From an uncultured bacterium (GTDB lineage: Bacteria > Acidobacteriota > Vicinamibacteria > Vicinamibacterales > Vicinamibacteraceae), in assembly GCA_966211945.1 (NCBI GenBank), contig CBIHOS010000005.1, positions 13,665-77,664 on the forward strand: a stretch of DNA of 64,000 bases, in the 5' to 3' direction. The position numbers were made by a program, and so were the translations under genes. Below, piece after piece: positions 26,860-41,300 of the stretch. How positions within the stretch are numbered: position 1 is the stretch's first letter; each line of letters begins with the position of its first letter. The notes below the pieces were generated by a model that ran no database searches, was not told the DNA's origin, and worked only from the letters and a program-made list of their open reading frames with translations.

Positions 26860-28611
26860 ATGGCCAAGCGTCCGACCGCCAACACCACTCGCCGCGGCGC
26901 CGCGCCGAGAGCGGCAGCCACAACCGCGGCACCGACCTACGCAGCCACCTGTCACGCGCTACTGGTGTACGCGGCGCCGGCCGAACGCGACGACACGCGC
27001 GCGCTCGCCATTGCTGAGGTGGCCGTGCGCGATGCGATCGGCGATGGCTATTCGGTCCAACCGCTCGGTCCTGGCGCTCGTGATTTCCGCGTGACACCAG
27101 CGGGCGGCGGCGGCATCGCTCCGGGACGGGCGTGGACGCTGACGCGGAGCCTGAAGGCGCATCGCGACATCGCCGACGCCGAACCGGCGATGGAACAGCC
27201 GGGCCTCGAACCGCCTCCTGGTGTCGTCGAGGACCGCCCTGCTGCTGCCCCGCGCGACTTCAAGCCCGATGTGCCGCTGCCGTGCGCGGCCAGCAACCAC
27301 GAGTGGAGCCTCGACCTGTGCCGGGTCAAGCAGGCCTGGGCGCTGACACCGCCGACGCCGGCCGGTCGTACGCACGGCGCGGGCATCGTCGTCGGCCATC
27401 CCGACACCGGTTACACGCGGCACGCCGAGCTCTTCGACGCCCCGCCCCGCGTGCGTGTGCACGACAGCTACGACTTCGTCCTGCGCCAGCCCGATGCGGC
27501 CGATCCGCTGGAGCGCGGCAACCCCGGCCACGGCACGACCACCGCCAGCGTGATCATGAGCGGGGCCGGCGGGCCGGCGACGCCGTTCGTCTCGGGGGTG
27601 GCGCCGGCCGCGGAGCTGATCCCGATTCGCGTGACACCGCGCGTCGTGCTCCTCGGCTTCGATCGACTCGCGGAAGCGATTCGTTACGCGACCGACAAGG
27701 GCTGCCACGTCATTTCGATGAGCCTCGGCGGCGTCACGCCGTCGGGCACGCTCGAGCGCGCCGTCGAGTACGCCGTCGGCCGCGGCGTCGTGGTGCTGGC
27801 CGCGGCCGGCAACGTCTGGCCGTGGGTCGTGTACCCAGCCCGCCTCGATCACGTGATTGCCTGCGCGGCCTGCAACTGCCAGCGCCAGATCTGGGATCGC
27901 TCGGCGAGCGGCGACACCGTGGACGTGACCGCGCCCGGCGAAACCGTGTGGGTGGCGCGTCCCGGCGCTACGGCCAGCCCCGCCGACGATGTGGTGGCGT
28001 CCGGATCGGGCACGTCGTATGCGGTGGCCACGACGGCCGGTGCGTGCGCGCTGTGGCTGGCATTCCACGGCCACGACGCGCTCGCCGCGCGCTACGGTGC
28101 CGGCCAGATCGCCGCCGTCTTCAAGGAAGTGCTGATGACGCACGGCGTCGACACCCCGTCGGGCTGGCGTGCCGACCGGCACGGCGCCGGCATCCTCGAC
28201 GCCGAGAAGCTGCTGCAGGCACCGCTGCCGGCCACGCCGCCGGCAAGCGGCCTCCGCATGCGTGCCGCGGCGACTTCGCGCCCCTTGAACGACGTCGACC
28301 GCTTCCTGCCGTACTACCCGGGCGTCGATCCGGCGCGGGTGCGGCGCGGCCTCGTGCGGGTGCTCGACACCGCGGATACCGATCTGCCCGGTGTGCTCGC
28401 CGAGTACGGCGACGAGCTGCTGTTCCACGTGGCCACCAACCCGCAGGTCCGGGCGCGCGTGCTGAAGGGAGACGGCCCGAAGAAGCGGGGGCAGCTGCTG
28501 CCGTCCCGCACGGCCCGCACGGCCCGCACGGCCCGCGCCACCGCGCCCGCCGCCGCCGGCCGCCTGGCCCGCGAGGGCTCGCGTGCCCTGCTCGTCCGCA
28601 TCGGAGCCTGA
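26860..28611 (+). CDS. Cytoplasmic S8 subtilisin-like serine peptidase
   Basis: Catalytic motifs GHPDTG (D), GHGTTT (H), AAAGN (oxyanion N), GTSYA (S); no signal peptide. Confidence 0.9.
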   Translation: MAKRPTANTTRRGAAPRAAATTAAPTYAATCHALLVYAAPAERDDTRALAIAEVAVRDAIGDGYSVQPLGPGARDFRVTPAGGGGIAPGRAWTLTRSLKAHRDIADAEPAMEQPGLEPPPGVVEDRPAAAPRDFKPDVPLPCAASNHEWSLDLCRVKQAWALTPPTPAGRTHGAGIVVGHPDTGYTRHAELFDAPPRVRVHDSYDFVLRQPDAADPLERGNPGHGTTTASVIMSGAGGPATPFVSGVAPAAELIPIRVTPRVVLLGFDRLAEAIRYATDKGCHVISMSLGGVTPSGTLERAVEYAVGRGVVVLAAAGNVWPWVVYPARLDHVIACAACNCQRQIWDRSASGDTVDVTAPGETVWVARPGATASPADDVVASGSGTSYAVATTAGACALWLAFHGHDALAARYGAGQIAAVFKEVLMTHGVDTPSGWRADRHGAGILDAEKLLQAPLPATPPASGLRMRAAATSRPLNDVDRFLPYYPGVDPARVRRGLVRVLDTADTDLPGVLAEYGDELLFHVATNPQVRARVLKGDGPKKRGQLLPSRTARTARTARATAPAAAGRLAREGSRALLVRIGA

Positions 28612-28619
28612 GGCCGCAT

Positions 28620-29960
28620 GTGCCCGGCATCTGGGAGACCGACGCGGAGTGGCGCCGCCTGCGGCGTGAACTCGCCACCTGGCGAGACCATCGCCGGCAG
28701 CGCGATGCCGACGGCCAGCACCGTTCGCAGCTGGAGGGGTGTGCCGCGGTGATCGACGCCGCCCTGCAGGAGCTGCACGGGCCGATCGCCGCGATGACCG
28801 ATGCCGACCCGCGGGCCGCCGCGCATTGCCGCGTGCACGACCGCCGGCTTGCGTGGCTGCGCCGCACCTGGGACTTCTTCCGCGACCGCTTCGACCAGCG
28901 TGACGACGACGAGCTCGCGCCGCTGCTGCGCGCCGCCGACGAGATCGCCTGGAGCTGTCATCGCGAGGCGTTCGGCGCGCCGCTGGCGTCGCGGTCTGCG
29001 ACTGTCGATCCACCGCCGCTGCCGTACGTCGAGCCGCAGCTGACGCCCGAGGTCTTTCCGCGCGGGCTCGTCCCGGGTGCGCTGCGGCGCGACGTCGACG
29101 CGGTCTTCCTGCGAACCGCGCTGGAGTCGCTGCCGTTCGCGGTCGTGCGCGTGCCGGCGTCCTGCGTCACCGCGCCCTGGTGGCTCGTCCACCTCGGTCA
29201 CGAGGTCGGTCACGTCGTCGACGACCAGATCCTCGGCCATGGCGCCCGCACGGCGATCGTCGAGGAACTCGGGCTCGGCGATCCCGCCACCGAGGAATGG
29301 ACGCGATGGAGCGGCGAGCTCTTCGCGGATCTCTACGCCGTGCTCATGTTCGGTCCGTGGGCGCTGTGGGCACTCGCGACGGCCGAAGCGCGAGACGCCG
29401 ACGCCATGCGCGCGCCGCGCGACGCCTATCCGCCGCCCGTCGTCCGCCTGCTCGTGATGGCTCGCGCCTGCGACGCACTCGGCCACGGCGCCGGCCCGGT
29501 CGACGACGCGGTGCCTGCCTGGCGGGCCTTGGTCGACGGCGATCCGCAGCAGGCCGCGCGAGTGCGCGACGGCGGCCGCCTGGTCGACGCGCTGTTGTCG
29601 TCGCCGGCCGGCGCGCGCGCGTGGCAGGCGCGGACCGCGCACGAGCCGGCGCGCTGGACGCCGGCGTCCCTGCAGACGTGGGTGACGCGGATGCCGACCC
29701 GCCCCGCCGTGGCGCCCGGCAAGCCGCGGCGGCGCTGGGCCCGCGAAGTGATGGCCGCAGGCGTGCTGCGCCGTCGCGCCGCCGACGGCACCCAACCCGG
29801 CGCGTTCGACGGCGCCGCGCTCGCCAGCGATCTGCTGGCGTGGCTGCCTGCCGTGCGAGAAGCGGGCGCGCGATCCACGACGGCCGAACCGACCGTACGC
29901 ACCGCGGCCCGTGGCGCCGCGCTCGCGCAGACCTTGATGGCGGCGGAGCCGCTCACATGA
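28620..29960 (+). CDS. HExxH zincin-like putative metallopeptidase
   Basis: LGHEVGHVV, downstream ELFADLYA (candidate third ligand Glu) and YPPPVVRL; GTG start with GAGG RBS. Confidence 0.6.
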   Translation: MPGIWETDAEWRRLRRELATWRDHRRQRDADGQHRSQLEGCAAVIDAALQELHGPIAAMTDADPRAAAHCRVHDRRLAWLRRTWDFFRDRFDQRDDDELAPLLRAADEIAWSCHREAFGAPLASRSATVDPPPLPYVEPQLTPEVFPRGLVPGALRRDVDAVFLRTALESLPFAVVRVPASCVTAPWWLVHLGHEVGHVVDDQILGHGARTAIVEELGLGDPATEEWTRWSGELFADLYAVLMFGPWALWALATAEARDADAMRAPRDAYPPPVVRLLVMARACDALGHGAGPVDDAVPAWRALVDGDPQQAARVRDGGRLVDALLSSPAGARAWQARTAHEPARWTPASLQTWVTRMPTRPAVAPGKPRRRWAREVMAAGVLRRRAADGTQPGAFDGAALASDLLAWLPAVREAGARSTTAEPTVRTAARGAALAQTLMAAEPLT

Positions 29961-32263
29961 CTCCAGTCAGGTTCACGATCGCGCTGCAGTCCAAACCGGG
30001 AAGCGGTTGGGCCGCCGAGGTCCGCGACGCGCACGGGGTGACGATCGACGGATCGGTACGCACGCTCTCGCCTGTGCCCCTGCCCGATCCCGACGACGAG
30101 TTGCTGACGTTTCCGGCCTGCGCGCTGCCGCTGCCCGGCGGCACGCCGGACGCCCAGGCGCTCGAGGCGCTCGACGCCGCCAGTCTCGGTGCGTGGTACG
30201 CCAACATGGCGTCGGGACAGGCGTCCGACGGTATGCCGCGGACGTTCGGCCGGTATCTCTTCGAGCTCGTGCTCGGCACGCAGGTCTGGGCGGCGATCAC
30301 CGCGCGGGCGGCGGCCGCGCCGATCGATCTGCGAGTCGCGTGCGACCCCGCCGACTGGGCGCTGATGCGCCTGCCCTGGGAGTTGATGCACGATGGCCAG
30401 TACTTCCTGGCCGCGCGTCCCGGCCCGCTCGTGCTCATGAGCCGCGAGATCGTCGCGCCTGGTGCGCCGGCATCGCCGCGCCGCTTCGCGCCGCGCGTGC
30501 TGTTCGTCATCGGCTCGCTGGTGGGCGACACCGAGATCCGCGCCGGCGCCGAGTACCTCGGCCTGCTGCGCCGCCTGCAGGCGCTCGATCTGACCCTCGA
30601 CTGCCGCGTGCTGCGCGAGGCCACCGCGGAACGCCTGCAGGCGGCCATCGCCGACTTCCAGCCCTCGGTCGTCCACTTCATCTGCCATGGCGGCTTCCTG
30701 GAGGGTCGAGGATCGCTGCGGCTGTTGCCGTCCGACCAGGCGTTGCCGTTCCAGGACTACACGGCGCCGCAGTTGCTGAACCTCCTCGCCACCACCGACG
30801 CGGCCGGCACCGTCACGTTCCCGGCCGTCGTCGTCCTCAACGCCTGCTACAGCGCCACGCCTCCTGCGCCGGGCGTCACCGATCCGCTCGACCGGCTGGC
30901 GACGTCGGAGGTGCTCGGCAACGGATCGGGTGCGCTGCCTGTCGGACGCGGCGCGGTGCCGCTGGGCGCCGAACTTGTGGCTGGCGACGGGGCGCACGGC
31001 GGCCCGGCGCTCGTGATCGGCATGGGCGGACAGGTCGCCGACCTGGCCTGCCGGCTCTTCACGCGTCAGTTCTATCAGTCGCTGCTGCGCGGCGATCCGA
31101 CGTGGTCGGCTGCGGCCGGCCGCCGCGGCGCGTTCACCCACGGCTTCGACCCGCGCGACACGATCGACTGGGCGACGCCGGTCGTCTTCGTCGAGTCGCA
31201 GGCCGCCCTCGTCGTCGACCCGCAGGAACTCGATCTCGCCCGGCGGCGCGCCATCGTCGCGCACCAACTGCGCAGCCAGGACGATCCGGCGGCGTTCTGC
31301 GGCCGCCTGACCTACTTCGACGACTGGCGCGAGATCACGCACGCGCCGCGCGGTTCGTCGCGGCGGCTGCTCGGCATCTCGATCAGCGACACCGATCCGG
31401 AGAAGCGCGTCGGCGGGTCGCGCCTGCTCGAGGAGCTGGCGGTCGCCGCCATCCACGCCGGGCACGTGCCGTGCCTGCGCGTCCATCGCGAGGCGTCACC
31501 GGAGCGGCCGTCGGACATCTCCGGCATCGCCCGCGAGATCCTCGCCGTGGCCCTCGACGTGCGCGTCAAGTACGGCCTGCTGCCGCACGACTGGGCGCCG
31601 GAGGTCATCGACCTTCATCTGCACCTGCGCGGCACGGCGGTCGACCTGCCGCTGCCGGTCGCGCGGGCGCTCGCCATCAGCGAGGCCGACGCCTTCCGCA
31701 CCGCGTTGCAGCGCGACCTCTGGCGCATTCGCGACGAGGTCGCCGCCCACGTCACGGCGCCGGTTGGGATCCAGGGGCGTCCGCTTGTCGTGGTGCTGCT
31801 CGACGAAGTGCAGCGCTATGCCGGCGCGGCGGGCCGCTTCGTCGCCGATCTGCTGCGCGCGGGCGGGCTTGGCACCGAGCAGGATCCGATTCCGGTCGCC
31901 TTCACGTACCGGAAGGACCTGAACTACGCCGAGCCGTACGAGCAGGTGCGCAAGGCGCTCGACGCCGTCTCCAACTGGGCGATTCGCCACGAGCTGCACC
32001 CTCTGCGCGAAGCCGCCACTGACCGCTCTATCTATTTGCACCTCCTGCTCCAGCGGACGCCGCCGCTCGTACCCGCGGCCAACCTGCCCTCCGGTCAACT
32101 GGACGGCTGGCTGGGCATCATCCACAACGCGACAGACAGGGGTTACCCGTCGCAGCTGAAGAGCACCGCCCCGGCTCTGAAGATTGCCCTCATGGCCTGT
32201 CAACTCGCCAACGTCATCGTCGAGGCCGACGACGAGCGTGTGCTCGCCGGGCTGGGGAAGTGA
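29957..32263 (+). CDS. CHAT (caspase-like) protease fused to a degenerate STAND-like NTPase
   Basis: LMRLPWELM, VHFICHGG (His), VVLNACYS (Cys), FTRQFYQSLLRG; C-terminal VGGSRLLEELA (Walker A lacking Lys) and VVLLDEVQ. ATGA overlap with the upstream gene. Confidence 0.8.
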   Translation: MTPVRFTIALQSKPGSGWAAEVRDAHGVTIDGSVRTLSPVPLPDPDDELLTFPACALPLPGGTPDAQALEALDAASLGAWYANMASGQASDGMPRTFGRYLFELVLGTQVWAAITARAAAAPIDLRVACDPADWALMRLPWELMHDGQYFLAARPGPLVLMSREIVAPGAPASPRRFAPRVLFVIGSLVGDTEIRAGAEYLGLLRRLQALDLTLDCRVLREATAERLQAAIADFQPSVVHFICHGGFLEGRGSLRLLPSDQALPFQDYTAPQLLNLLATTDAAGTVTFPAVVVLNACYSATPPAPGVTDPLDRLATSEVLGNGSGALPVGRGAVPLGAELVAGDGAHGGPALVIGMGGQVADLACRLFTRQFYQSLLRGDPTWSAAAGRRGAFTHGFDPRDTIDWATPVVFVESQAALVVDPQELDLARRRAIVAHQLRSQDDPAAFCGRLTYFDDWREITHAPRGSSRRLLGISISDTDPEKRVGGSRLLEELAVAAIHAGHVPCLRVHREASPERPSDISGIAREILAVALDVRVKYGLLPHDWAPEVIDLHLHLRGTAVDLPLPVARALAISEADAFRTALQRDLWRIRDEVAAHVTAPVGIQGRPLVVVLLDEVQRYAGAAGRFVADLLRAGGLGTEQDPIPVAFTYRKDLNYAEPYEQVRKALDAVSNWAIRHELHPLREAATDRSIYLHLLLQRTPPLVPAANLPSGQLDGWLGIIHNATDRGYPSQLKSTAPALKIALMACQLANVIVEADDERVLAGLGK

Positions 32264-32267
32264 GCGC

Positions 32268-35200
32268 ATGAGGCCCGAGACGACGTTCACGCCACAGCAC
32301 GCCGCCGACCTGCTGGCCCAGGCCCGGGCCGAACTTGAACTCGAGTCGCTTGCGCGCCTGCCCACCGTCACGCTGCCGGAGACCGCGCGCTGGCTGTGCC
32401 TGGTGCCGGCATGGACGCCGGCACTCGCGGTCCGATGCGGTCTGCCGGGGTGGTCGGACGGCGCCGAGGTGGCCGTGCTCGATGCCTGGCGCGACGAAGG
32501 ACTGGTCGAGACCACGCTGACGGCGCTGGCGATCGACGATCTCGGGCAGTTCATTCCGGCGCAGCGCCTGTTCTGGATGCCCCGCGACGCCCGCCTCGCG
32601 TGGCTGTCACGCGTCCTCGCCGAGGACGGCAGCGAGCGGCTCGTGGCGCTGATGCGCAGCATCGCCCGGCGCGTCTCAACGCAGCCGCGCGATCAGCACC
32701 TGCCCCAGGCCACCTGGCGGTGGGCGACGCTGGCCGCGGTCGAACCGGGCGCGTCGCCGACGCTGGCTGCCGTGTTCGAGGCGGCGATCGACGAGGCGCT
32801 GGCAGGCAGCCGGCAGGACGATGCCTGGTTGTGGATCGAGGCGATGCAGCGCGTGGCCGACGTGACGCCCGGCGAGGCGACGACGCTGCACCAGCGTGCG
32901 GTGCGGCGGCTGGCTCTATTCGATCGACAGCGGAACGACCGCGCCTCCCTGCGGCACTATCTCGCGCGTCCGGAGCAGTTCGACGCGTGGCGCGCGCTGC
33001 TGACCGGGCCGCACGATCGATGGGCGCTGCACTACCTGGGTGGCGGCGGCGTCGGCAAGACGATGCTCATGCGGGCGCTGACGTCAGGCACCGCCGAGCA
33101 CTTTCCACCCGGCTTCGATGCACCGCCGACAGTCACGGCCCGCATCGACTTCGATCACATAAATCCGGACTATCCGGCGCGACGCCCCGGCCTGCTCTTC
33201 GCGCACCTGGCCGAGGAACTGCGGCTCAAGGACGAGACCGGGCGCGCCGCGGAGGCGTTCGCGCTGCTGTTCAGCAGGATCGCGCTGCTGCACGAAAGTC
33301 CGTCTGGCCGCTCCATCGAGCGGACCACCGTCGATCGGCCGGACGGGGGCGCGGTCGAGGACGTGCTGGACGTGTTCGTGCTGGCCTGTGAAGCGGTGGC
33401 GGCGCCGCGCGCGGCGCGCGTCGTCCTCATGCTCGACACCTGCGAGGAGCTGGCCCGCCTCGGCCCCGACGGACGGCTGCCCGAGAGCGTCGAGCGGACC
33501 TTCGAGTTGCTCGAGGCCCTGCACATGCGCATGCCTGAGCTGCGCGTCGTGCTGTGCGGCCGCCGTCCGCTCGCCGGCACGTACGCCGATGGCGACGTGG
33601 TGAGCCCGGTACTGCCACCCAGGCCCTGGATGCGCCTGCACCGGATGTTCGCGTTCTCTGAAGCGGAAGCCAACACCTACCTGTCGCGATCGGGCGTGCC
33701 CGAGCCGCTGGTTGCGCCGATCCTGGCGCGCAGCGGCGCCGCCGCCTCGTCGGCCTCGCTCGGGCTGCCGGCATCGGACGGCACCCGCCGGTACAGCCCG
33801 TTCAGCCTGTCGGTCTATGCCACGTGGGTGTCGCAGCGCGATGCCAGCGTCGACCCCGATGCGATTCTCAACGACCCGGTCGATCACTTCGTGCGCATCC
33901 GGATCCTCGACCGCATCCACAACGCCGACGTGCGGCGGGTGCTGCCGCACGTCGCCCTGCTGGGCCGCTTCGACGAAGCGACGCTGCGGCGCGCGGTCGA
34001 TCTCCACAGCGAGACCGCCGACGCGATCATCCGCGAGGTCGTCGCCCAGGAGTGGATCGACCGGCAGGCCGGCGGCTTCTGCGAGGTCGAGCCTGAACTC
34101 CGGGTGCGGCTGCTGCGCCACCTCGAGCAGGCGTCGCCCCAGGAAGTGCAGGCGGCCCGCCGTCGCGTGCTGCCGGTCCTGTGGGAGTCGCTGGACGCCG
34201 CGCCGCCGTTCGACGTGCCCGACGAACCGATCGTCCAATCGCTCGTCCAGGCGCTGTTGTCCGATCCCGGCGGCCTGCTCACCGCCTGGCGCATCGTCGA
34301 CGCACGGGTCGTGCGCGGCAGCCATGCCGCCTGGGGCGTGAGGGTGCTCGGCCGGCTGCTCGCCGACGATGCGGCGCTGGCCGCGCCGGCGATCGAGGCC
34401 GGCACGTGGGGCGCGTTCGTGACGACGTACGCCGAGTGTGCGCTGCACGAACAAGGCGCCGCGGCCACCGAGGACCTGTGGCGCCGCGCCTGGGACGGCG
34501 TCCAGCAACTGGCCGACGCCGAGGAGCGCGCGTCGGTCCTCGTGCGCGTGGCGAGCGGCGGTCTCGCGCAGGCGGTGGCGGCGGTGGACAACGGCATCGC
34601 CGTCGATCTGTGGGTGCTGCGGCTCTACAACCTGCTGTCGGATCGACACGTGCGCGTGACCGCCCCGTCGCATCTCGCGCCGGCGATCGCGGCGCTGATG
34701 GCGTGCGCCGACGCGGTCGACGCGCAGGCGGATCCGCTGGCCCCGGCGCCGCCGATGCTCGAGCGGATGGCGTCGCTGGCCGCCGAAGTCGTGCACGCTC
34801 CGGCGCGTGCGATGGCGTTGATCTGCGAAGGGCGCTTCGCTCGCCGCCGGCAGGACGCCGCGCTGGCCAGCAAGCGCTTCGTCGACGCGTTGCAGACGAT
34901 GACGGGCAGCGAGGAGCGCGAGCTGATTGCGTGCCTGCAGTGGCCGGCCTGTCTCCGTGCCGAGAGGGTGACTGGTGGACGCGCATCGGATCGGCTCGAT
35001 CCCACGGCATGGGTCACCCTCGAGGCGATGCGCGGCCTTGCGGGCCTGGAACCGATCGACGCGACGCTCGCGCGGTTCGACGGACTGCCGCCGGTCCAGG
35101 GCGCGATCTCCGCGGGCCGCCTGCAGGCGCTGAGACTCTCGCTGGCGGCCGCCATTCGCGTGCCCGACAGGTCCGATGTGACGGATCGGCCGACGCAGGC

Positions 35201-37733
35201 CCTGCCGTCGGGGGCGCAGCAGGAAGTCGCGCTGGCGTTGACGACGGCGCACCGTGCCATCCTTCCCGCCGCCGCCGTCTCGGCTCTCGAGATCATCGAG
35301 CTGGGACGGCCCGACCTCGGGTTCCGCTGGCTCGCCGAACTGACGTCGATCGCCACGAGCGCGCGCAACACCGCGGTTGCCGCGGCGATTCGCCGGGCCG
35401 AGTCCGAGGCGGCGACGCGGCTGCGCCTCGGTGATCTGCCGCCCTATGCGAGGCAGCTCGCCGCGCATGCCGAGGCGCTACCGCATCAGGATCGCGAGCG
35501 GGTCCGCGCTTTCCTGCCGCCCAACGCGTTGCCGCCGACTTCCGACGAGGCAGCCCGCACGCGGGGCGCCTGTCACGCGATGTGGCGGGCCCGAGCGGCG
35601 CTCGACGACACCGAACGGGCCGCACTGGCGGAGTGGGGCCGCCGCGTCATTCTGGCGGCCCCTGAGGACGACAGCGAGTTCGCCTCGGCCTCGGTCGCGC
35701 TCGACCTCGTGGAGTGCAGCGACCTGGGCGTCGACGCCGAAGTGGCCACGCACCTGACGCCGACCTCGCCCGAGGACTGGTGGCACCGGCACCCGGCCGC
35801 GCCGGAGCTGGCCCTGCGCGTCTGGATTCGGAGCGCCGCCCTGGGCGTGTCGCCGGGAGGCCCGACCACGGAGCTCGTGAGACGTGTTGGCGTCCGCCGC
35901 GCCGCGGCCATCGCGTCGGAGGAGGGTGAGCTGCTGGCGCTGCGGCTGCCGGGCCAGGCCTTGCGCCTGCTCGCGCTCGCCCTGACCTGGTACGAGGATG
36001 CGCACGACGCGCTCGGCATCTGGCAGGTCTCGGCGCTGCTGTCGCTGACCCGCGTGAGGGCGGGAGTCCCGCGCGAGAGCATCGATCTCGGCGCCCTCCA
36101 GGCCGCCCACGACACCGTCTTCGCGCTCCAGCAGGCGAGCGCCGGTCCTCTGGGCCTGCTGCCGTGGACTGCGCTGGCGACCGGCGCTGCGCCGCTGGCG
36201 GTGCCGCCGGCCGGGGCCGAATGGGTGCCCTGGCTGCATCGTGTGATGGCGTTACAGCAATGGGTCGTCGGTGGCGTGCGTCCCGAGGTGGTCTTCGGCG
36301 CGGGCGCGCAGCTGCCGATCGAACTGCGCGGCTGGCCCGGCGGACGCGGCGACGCGATGACGACGACCCAGTCGGGGATCACGGCGGCAGCGGCGCCGCC
36401 GGCTGCGGCACCGGCGAGCGTACCGGCCGCGATGCCGCCCGCCCCGGTGGGCGCGCCCGGGGGATCCGTGCCGCCCTCGGCCGGCCACCCCACCGTGCCC
36501 GGCCCGGCGCGCTCGCCGGCCAGAGCCGGTTCCGCGATGCGCGCCGGCGCGCTCGTCGCCGGTGCCGTGGTCACCGCCGCGCTGGCGTTGGGGGGCGCTC
36601 CTTCCTGGGCATTCGGACTGGCCATCGCGCTGCTGCTCGGCCTGCTCGCGTGGACGGTGATTTGGCTGCGCGACGATCCCGACGCCACCGTTGCGCCGCC
36701 GATCGTGTGGACGGCGCGCGTCGTGGAGGCCGGCGGCAGCAGTGCCGCCGCCCGCATCGCCGCGCTGGATCTGTCGGTGTCGATCCACGACGACCGCGGC
36801 AACGCGATCACGACCGTCCCGATGCGGGTCAGACGCACCGATGCCTTCGCCGGACTCGATGCGCTGCGGCAGCCACCGGCCGGCACGGCCCTGTCGGCCC
36901 CGCTGCCGCGCACGCCCGCGCTGAAGCGGACCTGGCTCGAAGTCGCGGTGGCCAACGCCTGGCCCTGCTGGGAGGCGCTTCTGTGGTCCGGCCTGCTCGA
37001 TCGAGACCGGCTGTACCCGTCGGTCGTGCGGCGCGTGCCGGCGGCGCGCGCGGCCAGGCCCCTGGAACCGGCGACGGGAGGCGTGTGGAGCGTCGCGACC
37101 GTGTCCGCCTCGTCGAGCGACGAGCGCCAGGCGCTGTACGCGTGGGAACCCGCGACCCGCGCCGGGCACGTGCGGACGCGCCCGATCGCTGCCGAGGCGG
37201 TGCGCGCCGGCATGCCCGAGGACGGCGTCCAGGTCGCGCACGTCATCGCGCTGCCGGTCGACACGCCGCAGGGGCTGTTCTTCGAGGTGTCGAGCGGCGA
37301 CGCGGCCCAGTACAAGGAGACGCTCGAGTCACTTGCGGTCGATCGCGGCACGCTCTTCGACGCGTCACGGATCACGCACGCGTTCCCAGACGTGGCGTGC
37401 GTGCTGATCCAGCCGCCGAGGCGCCCGTCGCTCGACCTGACGCCGGCCGCCCGCGAAACGTGCGCGCAGCTGCGGGTGATTGGCGCGGCCCTCGCCGAGC
37501 ACGGCGTGTCGCTCGTCGTCGTGCTGCCGCCGCTCGACGGAGAGCTCGGCGCCGACCTCGTGCGGCTGCTGGGGCGACGTCTGGCGGGCCTGCGCGCCGG
37601 CCGCACCATCGATCCGCACGAGTTCGTCACGCGCGCCCGCGAGATCACGATGGCGCACGCGCAACGTGTGCTGCCGCGCGATGCCGCCATCGAGCTGGCG
37701 CTGCAGATCGCCGTGTACGCGGCGCGGGCATGA
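32268..37733 (+). CDS. Large STAND (AAA_16/NACHT-like) NTPase with helical repeats, a two-helix membrane hairpin and a C-terminal pseudo-CHAT domain
   Basis: Walker A GGGGVGKT (33039-33062), Walker B LMLDTCEE, VVLCGR; hydrophobic hairpin ~36546-36669; degenerate CHAT-like tail. Confidence 0.75.
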   Translation: MRPETTFTPQHAADLLAQARAELELESLARLPTVTLPETARWLCLVPAWTPALAVRCGLPGWSDGAEVAVLDAWRDEGLVETTLTALAIDDLGQFIPAQRLFWMPRDARLAWLSRVLAEDGSERLVALMRSIARRVSTQPRDQHLPQATWRWATLAAVEPGASPTLAAVFEAAIDEALAGSRQDDAWLWIEAMQRVADVTPGEATTLHQRAVRRLALFDRQRNDRASLRHYLARPEQFDAWRALLTGPHDRWALHYLGGGGVGKTMLMRALTSGTAEHFPPGFDAPPTVTARIDFDHINPDYPARRPGLLFAHLAEELRLKDETGRAAEAFALLFSRIALLHESPSGRSIERTTVDRPDGGAVEDVLDVFVLACEAVAAPRAARVVLMLDTCEELARLGPDGRLPESVERTFELLEALHMRMPELRVVLCGRRPLAGTYADGDVVSPVLPPRPWMRLHRMFAFSEAEANTYLSRSGVPEPLVAPILARSGAAASSASLGLPASDGTRRYSPFSLSVYATWVSQRDASVDPDAILNDPVDHFVRIRILDRIHNADVRRVLPHVALLGRFDEATLRRAVDLHSETADAIIREVVAQEWIDRQAGGFCEVEPELRVRLLRHLEQASPQEVQAARRRVLPVLWESLDAAPPFDVPDEPIVQSLVQALLSDPGGLLTAWRIVDARVVRGSHAAWGVRVLGRLLADDAALAAPAIEAGTWGAFVTTYAECALHEQGAAATEDLWRRAWDGVQQLADAEERASVLVRVASGGLAQAVAAVDNGIAVDLWVLRLYNLLSDRHVRVTAPSHLAPAIAALMACADAVDAQADPLAPAPPMLERMASLAAEVVHAPARAMALICEGRFARRRQDAALASKRFVDALQTMTGSEERELIACLQWPACLRAERVTGGRASDRLDPTAWVTLEAMRGLAGLEPIDATLARFDGLPPVQGAISAGRLQALRLSLAAAIRVPDRSDVTDRPTQALPSGAQQEVALALTTAHRAILPAAAVSALEIIELGRPDLGFRWLAELTSIATSARNTAVAAAIRRAESEAATRLRLGDLPPYARQLAAHAEALPHQDRERVRAFLPPNALPPTSDEAARTRGACHAMWRARAALDDTERAALAEWGRRVILAAPEDDSEFASASVALDLVECSDLGVDAEVATHLTPTSPEDWWHRHPAAPELALRVWIRSAALGVSPGGPTTELVRRVGVRRAAAIASEEGELLALRLPGQALRLLALALTWYEDAHDALGIWQVSALLSLTRVRAGVPRESIDLGALQAAHDTVFALQQASAGPLGLLPWTALATGAAPLAVPPAGAEWVPWLHRVMALQQWVVGGVRPEVVFGAGAQLPIELRGWPGGRGDAMTTTQSGITAAAAPPAAAPASVPAAMPPAPVGAPGGSVPPSAGHPTVPGPARSPARAGSAMRAGALVAGAVVTAALALGGAPSWAFGLAIALLLGLLAWTVIWLRDDPDATVAPPIVWTARVVEAGGSSAAARIAALDLSVSIHDDRGNAITTVPMRVRRTDAFAGLDALRQPPAGTALSAPLPRTPALKRTWLEVAVANAWPCWEALLWSGLLDRDRLYPSVVRRVPAARAARPLEPATGGVWSVATVSASSSDERQALYAWEPATRAGHVRTRPIAAEAVRAGMPEDGVQVAHVIALPVDTPQGLFFEVSSGDAAQYKETLESLAVDRGTLFDASRITHAFPDVACVLIQPPRRPSLDLTPAARETCAQLRVIGAALAEHGVSLVVVLPPLDGELGADLVRLLGRRLAGLRAGRTIDPHEFVTRAREITMAHAQRVLPRDAAIELALQIAVYAARA

Positions 37734-37743
37734 GGAGGATCCG

Positions 37744-38808
37744 GTGCCGCTGCTCGACACCCTGAAGGACTGGTGGGCTCACGACGCGTCGGGGGCCGTC
37801 GTCCACGACCTTGCCGCGGCCGCCGTCACGCCGTCCGGCGACACCGGCGCGGCGTGCACGGCCGGCCTGCACTACTTCCGCCTGTGGCTCGCCGAGATGC
37901 GCGTAGCTCGCGACAAGGAGTGGTTCGCGACGCGCCATCCGGCGGTGCACGCCCTCGTCCGCCTGCGCTTCGGCGACGTCATGGTGGAACTGCCGACGAT
38001 CGCCGGCCCGATGTCGCTGCCCGGACTCGATGAGGCGCACCTCGGCGACGTCGTGCAGCTCGACTACCCGCTGACGCCCCTGCTTCCCTACAACGGCGGC
38101 ATCGTCGAAGTCGCGGCCGGACTGGTGGCGCTCGAGGGCGGCCGCGTGCTCGGCGAGTTCATCGGCGCGATCGAGACCGTGACGTCCGTGCTCGCGCAGC
38201 CGCCGCTGTCGACGGCACTCGCGGCGGTCGGCCCCGTGACGAGCGCCGTGCAGACGCTGTTCGGCGCGGGCAAGGGGCGTCAGCACCTGGGCCTGCACGT
38301 GGCGTATGCCGGCGCCGGCGCGCCACAGGCGCTGCACGCCGGCTACCTTGCGGTCGTGCGGCGGGCGGCCGCGCCGATCGACGCTGCAGCGCTGCGCGTC
38401 GAGACGGGCCGTCTTCGGCTGCGCGGAGAGCCGCTCGACGGCGCGGACTCGATGCTGTTCAGAATCGAACGGATGACCGAGCGCGATGACTGGGACAGTC
38501 TCGCGACCATCGCGCGTCCGTTCAGGGACGCGCTCACCGCGCTGGCGCACCGCGACGAGACGATGGCCGAGGCGCTGGTGCGGCGGGCCGTGCTCGAGGC
38601 GTACTCGTCTCCCGACTTGACCCGCGCCGATCGGCCGCGCGTGTGCGCGGAGATCAAGCGCACCTACCAGGACGCGCGCGACGCCGGGCTCGGTCTCGAG
38701 CGGAGTGCGACGTCGCTGTCGCAGGCGATGGCCGCGGCGCTGCCGGCCGCGACGCTGGCGCGGCAGGCGCCGCCGACCCTGTCGTCCTTGCTGGACCTGA
38801 CCACGTGA
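37744..38808 (+). CDS. Hypothetical protein in the protease operon (candidate effector or substrate)
   Basis: GAGGAGG RBS + GTG; beta-rich N-half, amphipathic/hydrophobic central helices, helical tail; no family recognised. Confidence 0.65.
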   Translation: MPLLDTLKDWWAHDASGAVVHDLAAAAVTPSGDTGAACTAGLHYFRLWLAEMRVARDKEWFATRHPAVHALVRLRFGDVMVELPTIAGPMSLPGLDEAHLGDVVQLDYPLTPLLPYNGGIVEVAAGLVALEGGRVLGEFIGAIETVTSVLAQPPLSTALAAVGPVTSAVQTLFGAGKGRQHLGLHVAYAGAGAPQALHAGYLAVVRRAAAPIDAAALRVETGRLRLRGEPLDGADSMLFRIERMTERDDWDSLATIARPFRDALTALAHRDETMAEALVRRAVLEAYSSPDLTRADRPRVCAEIKRTYQDARDAGLGLERSATSLSQAMAAALPAATLARQAPPTLSSLLDLTT

Positions 38809-38820
38809 GCGGAGAGTGAC

Positions 38821-39624
38821 ATGGCCAAGAAAGCCCTGTGTGTCGGCATCAACGACTACCCGTACGACGGGTCCGATCTCAATGGATGCGTCAACGACGC
38901 GAACGCATGGGCCGCCGTGCTGAAGGAGCTCTACGGCTTTGCGGACGTCGCGCTGCTGCTGGATGCCGAGGCCACCCGCGTCCGGATGCTCGACGGCCTG
39001 AAGACGCTGCTGGCCGGCGCCGCCGCCGGCGACGTGCTCGTCTTCACCAACTCCTCGCACGGCTCGTACAAGGCCGACACCGACGGCGACGAGGAGAAGT
39101 ACGACGAGATCCTCTGCCCGTACGACATCGCCGACAACGACATCGCCGACGATGACCTCAGGCAGCTGTTCGCGAACCTGCCGGCCGGCGTCCACCTGAC
39201 GGTGGTCCTCGACAACTGCCATTCGGGCACCGCGACGCGCGCTTCCGTTTCCGACATCATTCCCGGGCTGCGGACGCCGGACGACCGGCGCGTGCGGTTC
39301 CTCAGCCCGGCGCTGCGCGGCGGCAAGGTGCTCGAGAACCCGTGGGCGGCCAAGCCGAAGCGGCAGATCGCGCATCCCGAGTCCGCGATGAAGGAGGTGC
39401 TGCTCTCCGGCTGCACCGACAAGCAGTACTCCTACGACGCCAGCATCGAGGGCACCTACCACGGGGCGATGACCTTCTACGCGATCAAGGCGATTCGCGA
39501 ATCGCCCGGGCTGCTCACGTACAATCGCCTGCACAAGCGCATCGCGAGTCTGATCGAGGACTATCCGCAGAATCCGCAGCTGGAGGGCAGCAGCGCCAAC
39601 AAGCGGCGGAAGCTGTTCACCTGA
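38821..39624 (+). CDS. Peptidase C14 metacaspase/orthocaspase
   Basis: KKALCVGINDY, LNGCVNDA, SSHGS (His), LDNCHSG (Cys), GAMTFY, QNPQLEG. Confidence 0.93.
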   Translation: MAKKALCVGINDYPYDGSDLNGCVNDANAWAAVLKELYGFADVALLLDAEATRVRMLDGLKTLLAGAAAGDVLVFTNSSHGSYKADTDGDEEKYDEILCPYDIADNDIADDDLRQLFANLPAGVHLTVVLDNCHSGTATRASVSDIIPGLRTPDDRRVRFLSPALRGGKVLENPWAAKPKRQIAHPESAMKEVLLSGCTDKQYSYDASIEGTYHGAMTFYAIKAIRESPGLLTYNRLHKRIASLIEDYPQNPQLEGSSANKRRKLFT

Positions 39625-39638
39625 GGACACGGTCGCCC

Positions 39639-41300
39639 GTGTACACGCTGGACGGTCGCCAGAAGAAGGCCCTGCACGCGGCGCTGCTCGCGGCATTCCC
39701 GCGCCACGCGTCGCTCGAGCAGCTGGTCCTGTTCCACCTCGACACGCATCTCGCGGTCGTGGCGGGCGAAGGACCGCTGACCGACGTCGTCTTCCGCCTG
39801 ATGGACTGGGCCGAGGCGCAGGGCCGCCTGGATGCGCTCGTCAACGGCGCGCGCGACGAGAACCCGGAGAACCCGCAGCTCATCGCCTTCGAGCGGCTGG
39901 TGCTGGAGGCCCGCGACACACGCCCGCAGGATTCGGCGCTGCGGCAGTTCGCCGAGCGTGTGCAGCTGGCGCCGGTGATGCCTGCCGATCCGGATCTCGA
40001 GAAGCGCGTCTTCCGGGCGGGCTTTTCGGACATCGCGCAGTGGCGGGCCCGGCTCGGTCAGGCGGAGCTGGCCGTGTGCCGCATCGAGGCGCCGGCGTGG
40101 CGCGCCCTCGGCACCGGCTTTCTGGTCGGGCCCGATCTGGTCGTGACCAACCGGCATGTCGTGGACGCGCTCGCGTCCGATCCGGCGCCGCCGCTGGTGG
40201 CGCGCTTCGACTTCAAGGTCTCGCCCGACGGCACGCGGCTCCGCGAGGGCCGGACCTTCGGCCTGGCCCGCGACTGGCTCGTGGCGAGCAGCCCGGTTGC
40301 CGAGCTCGACTTCGCAGTGGTGCGGCTCGACGCCCGTGCCGGCGACCTCGCTCCGGGTGGAACGTCGGGCGCGCCGCCGCGCGGCTGGATCACGCCGGCC
40401 TGGCGCGACCTCGAAGCCGACGAGACGCTGTTCGTGATCCAGCACCCGCAGGGGGACGCGCTGAAGCTGGCGGCCGGGCGCTTCGATCGGCGCGAGCCGA
40501 CTAGGCTGCGCTACCGCGTGGACACCGAGCCCGGTTCGTCGGGATCGCCGTGCTTCACCGCGCAGCTCGAGCTCGTCGCCCTGCACCGCGGCGCCGCCGA
40601 GGGGGCTGCCAACCAGGGCGTGCCGTTCGACGCCATCGTCGCGGCCCTGCCGGATGCCGTGCGCGCGTCGATGCAGCCGTTCGTGGTCACCGTGCCGGCG
40701 ACCGACAGCGCGCCCGACACGGACGCGCCGGCCCGTGCCGGTGTGGAGCGCCTGCCCAACGCGCCGCTCACGCCGGCGGCATCGACGGCGGCGCGGCGCC
40801 GGCCGGTTGTCGTTGCCGCGGCGATGCTGGTGGTGGCGCTCACGGGTGCCGTGGCGTGGTGGCGCCCGTGGACGGCGGCAGGCGGCACGCGATCGCCCAC
40901 GCCGCCGCCGATCGCGGTGCGGGAGATCTCGGTGCCCTTCGAATGGGCGCGCGTGGCGGACACTCGCGGTTCGTGCGAGTCGGCTGGAGGTGTGACGCGG
41001 GCGCTCTACCGCGGGCAGTCGCAGGGCGCCTGGCCGGCCACCAGGGGACAGCGGGCCCGCGAGTTGCTGCTCGTTGCCTACCAGACGGTGGCCATCGAGC
41101 AGGTGACCGCGTCGATGGCCGGCAACAGCGAGGCGCTGAGCGTCCTGGGCGGCACGGCCAACCGCGACGTTGCGCGCAAGCTGCAGTTCCCGGCCGCCGT
41201 CACCGCGCCGGTCGTCGTCGTCGCCTGCGTCCGGACGCCGCTGCCCGCGCCCGAGGCGCCGCCGTTCCGTGTGTCGACCTGGAGGGAGGTCACGCCATGA
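39639..41300 (+). CDS. EAD1 - trypsin-like (S1) serine peptidase - transmembrane helix - extracytoplasmic domain
   Basis: N-terminal LHAALLAAFP...LEQLV...VVFRLMDWAEAQGRLDALVNGARDENPENPQL (EAD1-like); TNRHVV (H), LDFAVV (D), PGSSGSP (S); TM ~40806-40860. Confidence 0.8.
   Translation: MYTLDGRQKKALHAALLAAFPRHASLEQLVLFHLDTHLAVVAGEGPLTDVVFRLMDWAEAQGRLDALVNGARDENPENPQLIAFERLVLEARDTRPQDSALRQFAERVQLAPVMPADPDLEKRVFRAGFSDIAQWRARLGQAELAVCRIEAPAWRALGTGFLVGPDLVVTNRHVVDALASDPAPPLVARFDFKVSPDGTRLREGRTFGLARDWLVASSPVAELDFAVVRLDARAGDLAPGGTSGAPPRGWITPAWRDLEADETLFVIQHPQGDALKLAAGRFDRREPTRLRYRVDTEPGSSGSPCFTAQLELVALHRGAAEGAANQGVPFDAIVAALPDAVRASMQPFVVTVPATDSAPDTDAPARAGVERLPNAPLTPAASTAARRRPVVVAAAMLVVALTGAVAWWRPWTAAGGTRSPTPPPIAVREISVPFEWARVADTRGSCESAGGVTRALYRGQSQGAWPATRGQRARELLLVAYQTVAIEQVTASMAGNSEALSVLGGTANRDVARKLQFPAAVTAPVVVVACVRTPLPAPEAPPFRVSTWREVTP

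Follow-up and report, generated by a model that had tools for sequence, protein, structure and literature searches.

A CHAT protease on an eroded STAND module and its active STAND partner: a gene pair that appears to be parted at the hinge before the winged helix

The gene pair and the degenerate STAND module of B

A window of 64,000 nucleotides from an uncultured bacterium of the family Vicinamibacteraceae (Acidobacteriota; contig CBIHOS010000005.1 of assembly GCA_966211945.1, positions 13,665 to 77,664) carries two adjacent genes, here called B and C, that we read as obligate partners, one an inactive and the other an active STAND protein, split at the hinge between the first helical domain, or lid (HD1), and the winged-helix domain (WHD). 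Positions given below refer to this window, i.e., to the whole stretch, and all the features described lie on its + strand. Gene B (29957..32263), defined by third-position GC (GC3), start-codon analysis, Pfam and homologues, encodes a protein of 768 residues composed of a CHAT protease and a C-terminal pseudo-STAND module. Gene C (32268..37733) encodes a protein of 1821 residues, in which an N-terminal helix is followed by a winged helix that we call WHD', a helical domain, an active STAND unit formed by a nucleotide-binding domain (NBD), HD1 and a WHD, a long helical region, two transmembrane helices and a C-terminal domain. A first-pass annotation, made from the DNA letters and their open reading frames (ORFs), had suggested that the N-terminus of C is an orphan winged helix that completes the NTPase of B in trans; the observation on which it was built is confirmed by our analysis, which supports the interpretation in part.

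The CHAT domain of B occupies residues 105-409 (Pfam E 3e-16). A search for homologues of B gave 24 proteins with 52-100% identity; the full-length ones have 749-777 residues, and two shorter entries have 632 and 437. Over all searches the full-length homologues range from 709 to 777 residues. The last 339 residues of B (residues 430-768; 31244..32260) have no Pfam match of their own in the window protein; likewise, a profile from close B homologues only did not match the NBD of C, and the B-tail profile gave no meaningful match with PDB sequences. When diverse orthologues were included, hhalign aligned B 430-768 with C 215-640 (E 3.5e-5, 276 colinear columns), pairing helix with helix, P-loop with P-loop, Walker B with Walker B, and lid with lid. 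A model of the orthologue from Luteitalea sp. TBR-22 agrees with this assignment: its degenerate NBD (NBD*, model residues 9-256) matches Avs3 with Z 12.8 and a root-mean-square deviation (rmsd) of 3.7 Å over 182 aligned residues, and it also matches BrxC, Dark, CED-4 and ORC/Cdc6. Sub-threshold Pfam matches to AAA_16 occur in 7 of 32 B tails and marginal ones to nSTAND1 and nSTAND6 in one member each, while neither the B tail nor WHD' reached the threshold of any Pfam or NCBIfam family.

The alignment of 32 B orthologues (alignment A2) shows the marks of a STAND module, namely an F-C-G-R helix, a P-loop, a hydrophobic strand that ends in Asp, a lid helix of the form L.P[FL]..ED.LAY, a GxP motif, and an acidic A-D-D-E near the end. 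The P-loop of the window protein (31388..31420) is eroded, since it ends in RVGGS and has no lysine; GG[ST] or Gx[T] stands in place of GK[ST] in 25 of the 32 orthologues, this one included. The other seven (L009, L012, L015, L016, L021, L028 and L037) retain GK[ST], and judging from these residues the inactivity of the module is probably lineage-dependent; where the lysine is kept, the otherwise dead ATPase of B may still bind nucleotide. The Walker-B-like strand LVVVLLDEVQ (31784..31813) is aligned by hhalign with VVLMLDTCEE of C, and its Asp is variable among the orthologues. The end of the lid (32141..32236) comprises a GxP-like motif (G-Y-P-S), the last helix and the acidic A-D-D-E; at least 90% of the sequences share P302 and D330 (alignment numbering), and in most loci the C-terminus of B lies 8-30 residues beyond the A-D-D-E.

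The point where B ends can be read from the same profile alignment. Residue 758 of B (position 329 of the 339 in the query) aligns with residue ~532 of C, and the internal WHD of C begins near residue 550, so the B tail ends about 18 residues short of the equivalent of this domain. B is composed of CHAT, NBD* and HD1, and it ends at the HD1/WHD hinge. The alignment A2, the fold matches and the hhalign result agree that the degenerate NTPase recognized in the first-pass annotation is a true STAND NBD-HD1 devoid of a WHD, and that B stops soon after it, as had been noticed there. In four loci B is broken into two ORFs or only CHAT fragments were found (L015:7654-9965, L019:7597-9841, L030:7406-9440 and L042:8004-9701); L015, L019 and L042 are metagenome-assembled and L030 is an isolate assembly of Nonomuraea roseola, and these cases may represent assembly errors or decayed copies.

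The active STAND core of C

The NBD-HD1 of C (33003..33902) was identified from its Walker motifs and from structural matches. The Walker A motif GGGGVGKT starts at residue 258 (33039-33062) and the Walker B motif VVLMLDTCEE at residue 385 (33420-33449); G258, G261, G263, K264, T265 and D390-E394 are invariant in 63 C sequences, so that both motifs of a STAND NTPase are intact. An AlphaFold model of C 1-660, obtained with these 63 sequences, showed a mean predicted local distance difference test score (pLDDT) of 89.5 and a predicted template-modelling score (pTM) of 0.86. The structural matches of the core, which include paby2304, ORC/Cdc6, Avs3, the NRC resistosomes and CED-4, span residues 226-640 and all of them start at about residue 226. 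The NBD-lid-WHD unit superposes on Orc1/Cdc6 over 314 aligned residues with an rmsd of 6.9 Å, and on paby2304 over 311 residues with Z 12.9 and an rmsd of 7.7 Å.

The internal WHD, with canonical topology, covers residues ~550-622 (33915..34133), and its elements as assigned by DSSP are helices 553-565, 570-576 and 581-592, strands 597-599 and 605-607, and helix 609-622. According to the model, the core of C is a complete STAND NBD-HD1-WHD unit. It is joined to WHD' by a helical domain, referred to here as the 'pre' domain (residues 121-245; 32628..33002; model helices 122-246), which is conserved in all the members of the family. The C-terminal domain of C (residues ~1466-1821; 36663-37730), which is cytoplasmic, shows a weak but colinear alignment to the CHAT domain of B over 126 columns (hhalign P 0.0046); this alignment includes the stretches W-E-A-L-L / P-W-E-L-M and V-A-H-V-I / V-V-H-F-I, and it is not significant by itself.

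An extra winged helix at the N-terminus of C

Residues ~35-120 of C (32370..32627) form WHD'. In the AlphaFold model, with pLDDT values of 85-97 in this region, DSSP assigns helices 37-45, 51-57 and 67-76, strands 81-84 and 100-103, and helix 106-120; the order helix-helix-helix-strand-strand-helix is identical to that of the internal WHD (553-622). An exhaustive HMMER scan with C 1-250 yielded 99 family representatives, nearly all of 1650-2100 residues and with the match at the N-terminus, and WHD' was present at residues 1-73 in 97 of them.

The first-pass annotation had drawn a parallel between the N-terminus of C and the segment that follows its NTPase, from six short motifs that are located at residues 40, 69, 102, 559, 586 and 605. 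In the two sequences of the window this parallel does not stand: BLASTP aligned WHD' with the internal WHD at E 6.9, the Smith-Waterman score of 20 was below the mean of 2000 shuffles (24.6), and the N-terminal profile scored the internal WHD of the window protein at E 0.31. At the level of the family, on the other hand, it does. The comparison of 38 N-terminal segments (alignment A5) with 62 internal WHD segments using hhalign gave P 4.1e-4 over 83 colinear columns and recovered exactly the three motif pairs of that annotation; four control regions taken from these proteins gave P 0.2-0.47. A first comparison, with segments taken from a full-length MAFFT alignment, had given P 0.007, and a cleaner alignment was needed. 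Reciprocal searches with hidden Markov models (HMMs) pointed in the same direction, since the N-terminal HMM recovered 18 of the 62 internal WHDs with E<0.01 (1.7e-7 and 1.4e-6 for the two best), and the internal-WHD HMM recovered 5 of the 38 N-termini (4e-6 for the best, over its full length); in control regions there were 0-2 matches, the best at 1e-3. The control regions served as the null, because an unrelated helical control also beat its own shuffles when real and shuffled sequences were compared, and that test was dropped. The relation between WHD' and the internal WHD is visible only when whole families are compared, and taking profiles and model together, the N-terminus of C can be assigned as a winged helix related to the STAND WHD of its own family.

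Other comparisons of WHD' served as leads. The nearest neighbours of C 30-125 in a language-model search were WHD_MalT, HTH_77 and WHD_NWD1, at 0.75-0.87, i.e., below the 0.9 mark and to be taken as leads only, and hmmscan against the curated Pfam models of these three families gave no match. The N-terminal segments and profile also showed weak matches to MarR-type and other winged helix-turn-helix (wHTH) families (MarR_2, E 0.0012; PDB 3bj6, E 0.011). The near-invariant residues of WHD' are W42, P47, W49 and P60, which are hydrophobic or structural, together with R109. The second Asp of the A-D-D-E of B (residues 757-760; 32225-32236) is conserved in at least 90% of the orthologues, and a salt bridge between this tail and R109 would be a guess.

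In several lineages the wing of WHD' is interrupted by inserts of 125-480 residues, and both halves of the domain are still detectable on either side. These inserts include a WD40 propeller in Microbispora hainanensis (L038:8804-9910; Pfam E 6e-52), HEAT repeats in P0092, TPR repeats in P0058 and P0095, and unassigned modules of 380-410 residues; other insert-bearing entries are P0113, L012:8897-10081, L020:8711-9937 and L037:8858-9997.

The boundary between B and C

In the window, the stop of B (TGA, 32261..32263) is followed by a spacer of 4 nt and by the ATG of C (32268), which is in a different frame; both codons lie where the first-pass annotation had placed them. A scan in which one genome per species was kept gave 40 loci from five phyla (Acidobacteriota, Actinomycetota, Myxococcota, Chloroflexota and Planctomycetota), and 38 of these loci could be scored for the separation of the two genes. 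B is located directly upstream of C, and the B tail and WHD' are in different ORFs, in all 38. Start and stop codons overlap by 4 nt in 22 loci, and in most of the remaining ones the distance is 6 nt or less, with spacings and frame relations that vary (-4, -1, 0, +2 to +6, +24 and more). In four loci B and C are in one frame with a single stop between them (TGA, TGA, TAG and TAA). Since the frame varies and the in-frame stops differ, there is no conserved recoding signal; the production of a single B-C protein by read-through or frameshift was ruled out, as far as the sequence can tell, on the basis of the varying frame, spacing and stop codons. From these gene coordinates, the pattern of overlaps fits the translational coupling of two proteins and not a sequencing error or recoding, and the split between B and C is real and old. 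The caution raised in the first-pass annotation, that the stop could be a sequencing error, is answered by the separate ORFs in every scorable locus and by the consistent length of the B homologues.

How the two proteins may be joined

STAND switches, such as Apaf-1, the NLRs of plants and animals, and the bacterial Avs proteins, are seen as proteins whose nucleotide site is clamped by a winged helix of the same chain. In the pair described here C has two winged helices and B has none, and the NBD of C is already provided with its own WHD; WHD' is supernumerary in C because all the structural matches cover C 226-640, the internal WHD included. Read across the gene boundary, these parts make up one STAND core, no more and no less, with its domains in the proper order. 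The sensor repeats of ordinary STAND proteins come after the winged helix, and the WD40, TPR and HEAT inserts in the wing of WHD' are found where a STAND module would carry its sensor.

From this accounting, the reading that we favour is that B and C work as the two subunits of a single apoptosome-like machine in which WHD' docks onto the NBD*-HD1 of B, and we give it slightly less than an even chance. B brings a live, caspase-like CHAT protease mounted on a dead STAND NBD-HD1, and C brings the missing piece, WHD' with its helical domain, followed by its own active NBD-HD1-WHD, the helical sensor region, the membrane hairpin and the C-terminal domain. The two proteins are made together by coupled translation, and WHD' would serve as the docking site for NBD*-HD1, in the way that a WHD packs against the NBD inside a single STAND chain, or against the AAA+ domain next to it in the origin recognition complex (ORC). 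ATP-driven switching and oligomerisation of C would then gather the tethered CHAT domains and activate them, and the active protease could cleave proteins encoded downstream in the operon. Given that the core of C resembles Apaf-1, CED-4 and Dark and that B bears a caspase-fold protease, oligomerisation and activation by proximity would be the natural model. The docking of WHD' on B in trans is plausible; the origin of the pair by splitting of a duplicated STAND core, proposed in the first-pass annotation as the fission of a tandem-STAND ancestor, would follow from the same domain accounting.

Several results weigh against this reading. A virtual fusion was prepared from the TBR-22 orthologue (L002), where B and C are in frame, by reading the TGA as Gly and folding the B tail and C 1-239 as a single polypeptide. 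Each half was folded in the model (pLDDT 82.7), but the pTM was 0.53, the junction and the lid of B had pLDDT values of 46-75, and no confident packing of B against C was seen, a negative that is weak because the B half had 11 alignment rows and only three distant rows were paired. In this alignment MAFFT had misaligned the lid helix of B (L-A-Y..L-L-H-P) with the first helix of WHD' (W-L-A-L.P.W-T), an artefact, and the distant rows with B only were omitted. The colinear matches of the fusion to Cdc6, ORC, MalT and Dark had an rmsd of 14-16 Å, and no canonical NBD-HD1-WHD assembly was formed; the completion of the neighbouring NTPase in trans proposed in the first-pass annotation was not reproduced as a confident docking. 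No fused B-C or B-WHD protein was found among the 38 loci, 24 + 26 B-family proteins and 99 C representatives, in a search that took in the B-family length classes up to 3840 residues and the HMMER scan with C 1-250. No significant similarity was detected beyond the winged helix: the 'pre' domain compared with the region after the internal WHD gave hhalign P 0.12, and the whole N-terminal module compared with WHD plus post region gave P 0.032, and neither value makes a convincing case for a full tandem duplication. Furthermore, the nucleotide site of B is dead in most lineages, and a nucleotide-sensing contact with a WHD is not obviously needed there. Finally, the pTM of 0.86 for C 1-660 implies that, at least in the model, WHD' and the 'pre' domain pack on C itself, in which case WHD' would not be the orphan that it was taken for.

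This last point is the core of the strongest alternative, according to which WHD' acts in cis on the NBD and helical domain of C, as a second lid, an autoinhibitory plug or a scaffold for sensor inserts, and B binds elsewhere, either side by side through an NBD*:NBD contact as ring neighbours or through its CHAT domain and the CHAT-like C-terminal domain of C. In that case the position of the gene boundary at HD1/WHD would be of historical meaning only. C 1-660 as a single confident body, as opposed to the poorly packed construct of B tail and C head, is consistent with it, the repeat domains in the wing suggest a sensor platform, and the weak colinear alignment of the C-terminal domain with CHAT offers another interface between B and C. 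Published paired STAND systems were also predicted to join by ring contacts (PMC8195603). Nevertheless, action in cis leaves unexplained why the end of B coincides exactly with the HD1/WHD hinge in all lineages and why there are two WHDs in C and none in B; the packing is read from the pTM only, and it is compatible with trans docking, since a WHD' packed on C could make a second contact with B. We take this alternative seriously and on balance doubt it.

A different proposal would be that WHD' is a nucleic-acid-binding wHTH, through which C senses foreign DNA or RNA or regulates transcription, in a role unrelated to B. The weak matches to MarR-type and other DNA-binding wHTH domains point to this function, and a sensing of nucleic acids by inactive STAND modules has been proposed by Kaur et al. 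(PMC8195603). However, these matches are spread among numerous wHTH families, the highest specific similarity of WHD' is with the STAND WHD of its own family, which is a protein-contact domain, its near-invariant residues with their single Arg do not form a basic recognition helix, and its wing accepts long inserts; we regard a role of this kind as improbable. It is hardly credible that an artefact or recent accident explains the split, whether as a sequencing error, as a pseudogene or as programmed read-through or frameshift, in spite of the four in-frame loci, since a stop is present in every locus, the lengths of B are clustered, the in-frame stops differ, the 4-nt overlap typical of coupled separate genes predominates, and the two genes of the window are in different frames.

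Returning to the docking of WHD' on B, one further step may be considered, that the HD1/WHD hinge has been turned into an intermolecular joint, so that the movement from the closed to the open state of a STAND protein would turn into the association or dissociation of a protease subunit on a chain of its own. This is rather unlikely and is offered tentatively. If it were true, it would be a split-domain coupling of sensing to the activation of a caspase-like protease, conserved across at least five phyla, and the sensor repeats grafted into the wing of a WHD that acts in trans could tune the joint. A natural STAND protein cut at the hinge, with a caspase-like protease on one half and a working ATPase on the other, would be a ready-made system in which to study the clamp as a separable protein-protein interaction, and it would show a dead ATPase half-module serving as an adaptor instead of CARD or EAD domains.

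Comparison with known systems

The closest described arrangement is a two-gene operon reported by Kaur, Iyer, Burroughs & Aravind (2021, eLife; PMC8195603), whose section 15 presents an active STAND and an eroded STAND with effectors, predicted to form a hetero-multimer. As in that operon, the STAND genes are adjacent here and the eroded one bears the effector, with B as the CHAT and eroded STAND protein located directly upstream of the active C in 38 of 38 loci. The two are compared by their arrangement and not by clade: the published one is a member of the S29/Dap3/RNA12-like STAND clade, where a conserved arginine finger in both partners is a further criterion, and its effectors are GT4 or HEPN, while the effector here is CHAT. 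The section on that pair describes neither a split at the HD1/WHD hinge nor an extra N-terminal WHD on the active partner, and B and C differ from the pair described there in that they sit in an operon with four more peptidases. With respect to known pairs, what sets B and C apart is where the break falls and that the active member carries an additional winged helix; in the literature we found no paper on a STAND winged helix supplied in trans, or on this break position together with an extra WHD on the active partner.

The ternary systems named iSTAND and iSTAND2 (Kaur et al. 2020, PMC7159879; 2021, PMC8195603) contain an inactive STAND with N-terminal caspase-like or trypsin-like peptidases or effector-associated domains (EADs), and occur in bacteria with complex life styles. 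The presence of a peptidase on a dead STAND module is shared with B, and an EAD1-trypsin gene is found in the same operon; however, iSTAND is defined by a MoxR-vWA pair (PMC7159879), and here there is no match to MoxR or vWA and the partner is an active STAND.

The apoptosome machines that combine a STAND protein with a caspase (Apaf-1/caspase-9, CED-4/CED-3 and Dark/Dronc) share with this pair the NBD-HD1-WHD fold of the C core and a caspase-fold protease as effector. In the apoptosome, proteases are recruited by CARD-CARD adaptors. The present pair differs in that its protease is carried by a dead STAND half-module, that a WHD is proposed as the adaptor, and that C is anchored in the membrane. 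ORC/Cdc6 proteins have the fold class of the NBD* of B and of the C core, and in ORC a subunit touches the AAA+ domain of the adjacent one through its WHD, which sets a precedent for a WHD placed on the NBD of another chain. Nevertheless, each ORC subunit keeps its own WHD, and none of them is known to be cut at the lid/WHD hinge with the WHD on another polypeptide.

The operon

The window has a G+C content of ~72%, and the co-directional operon to which B and C belong was delimited by GC3 and start codons. Upstream of B there are an S8 subtilase (26860-28611), recognized by GC3, start codons and a family scan, and an uncharacterised protein of 446 residues (28620-29960), encoded directly 5' of B; the ATG of B overlaps the stop of this gene (ATGA). 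Downstream of C an uncharacterised protein of 354 residues (37744-38808) is followed by a C14 caspase (38821-39624) and, in the region 39342-41300, by an EAD1-trypsin protein, the last two identified by the family scan. No match to the MoxR or vWA families was obtained among the operon genes scanned (S8, 446-residue, CHAT, STAND, 354-residue, C14 and EAD1-trypsin genes). The trypsin-like protein carries an EAD1 adaptor domain, and Pfam detected no second EAD1 in B, C or the other scanned proteins of the operon. Each domain is present in one copy in the genome of 5.0 Mb, and WHD' is single in both operon and genome, so it is not a repeated adaptor; the idea of an adaptor of the EAD type was discarded for this reason.

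A widespread and uncharacterised multi-protease operon, present in five phyla, has the B-C pair as its constant core, and therefore to know how B and C join would be the first step to understand the system as a whole. The same gene order as in the window was observed in Luteitalea sp. TBR-22 and in one JGI metagenome contig, which makes a Luteitalea-like acidobacterium the most likely host; the orthologous loci L001 and L002 carry the same set of genes.

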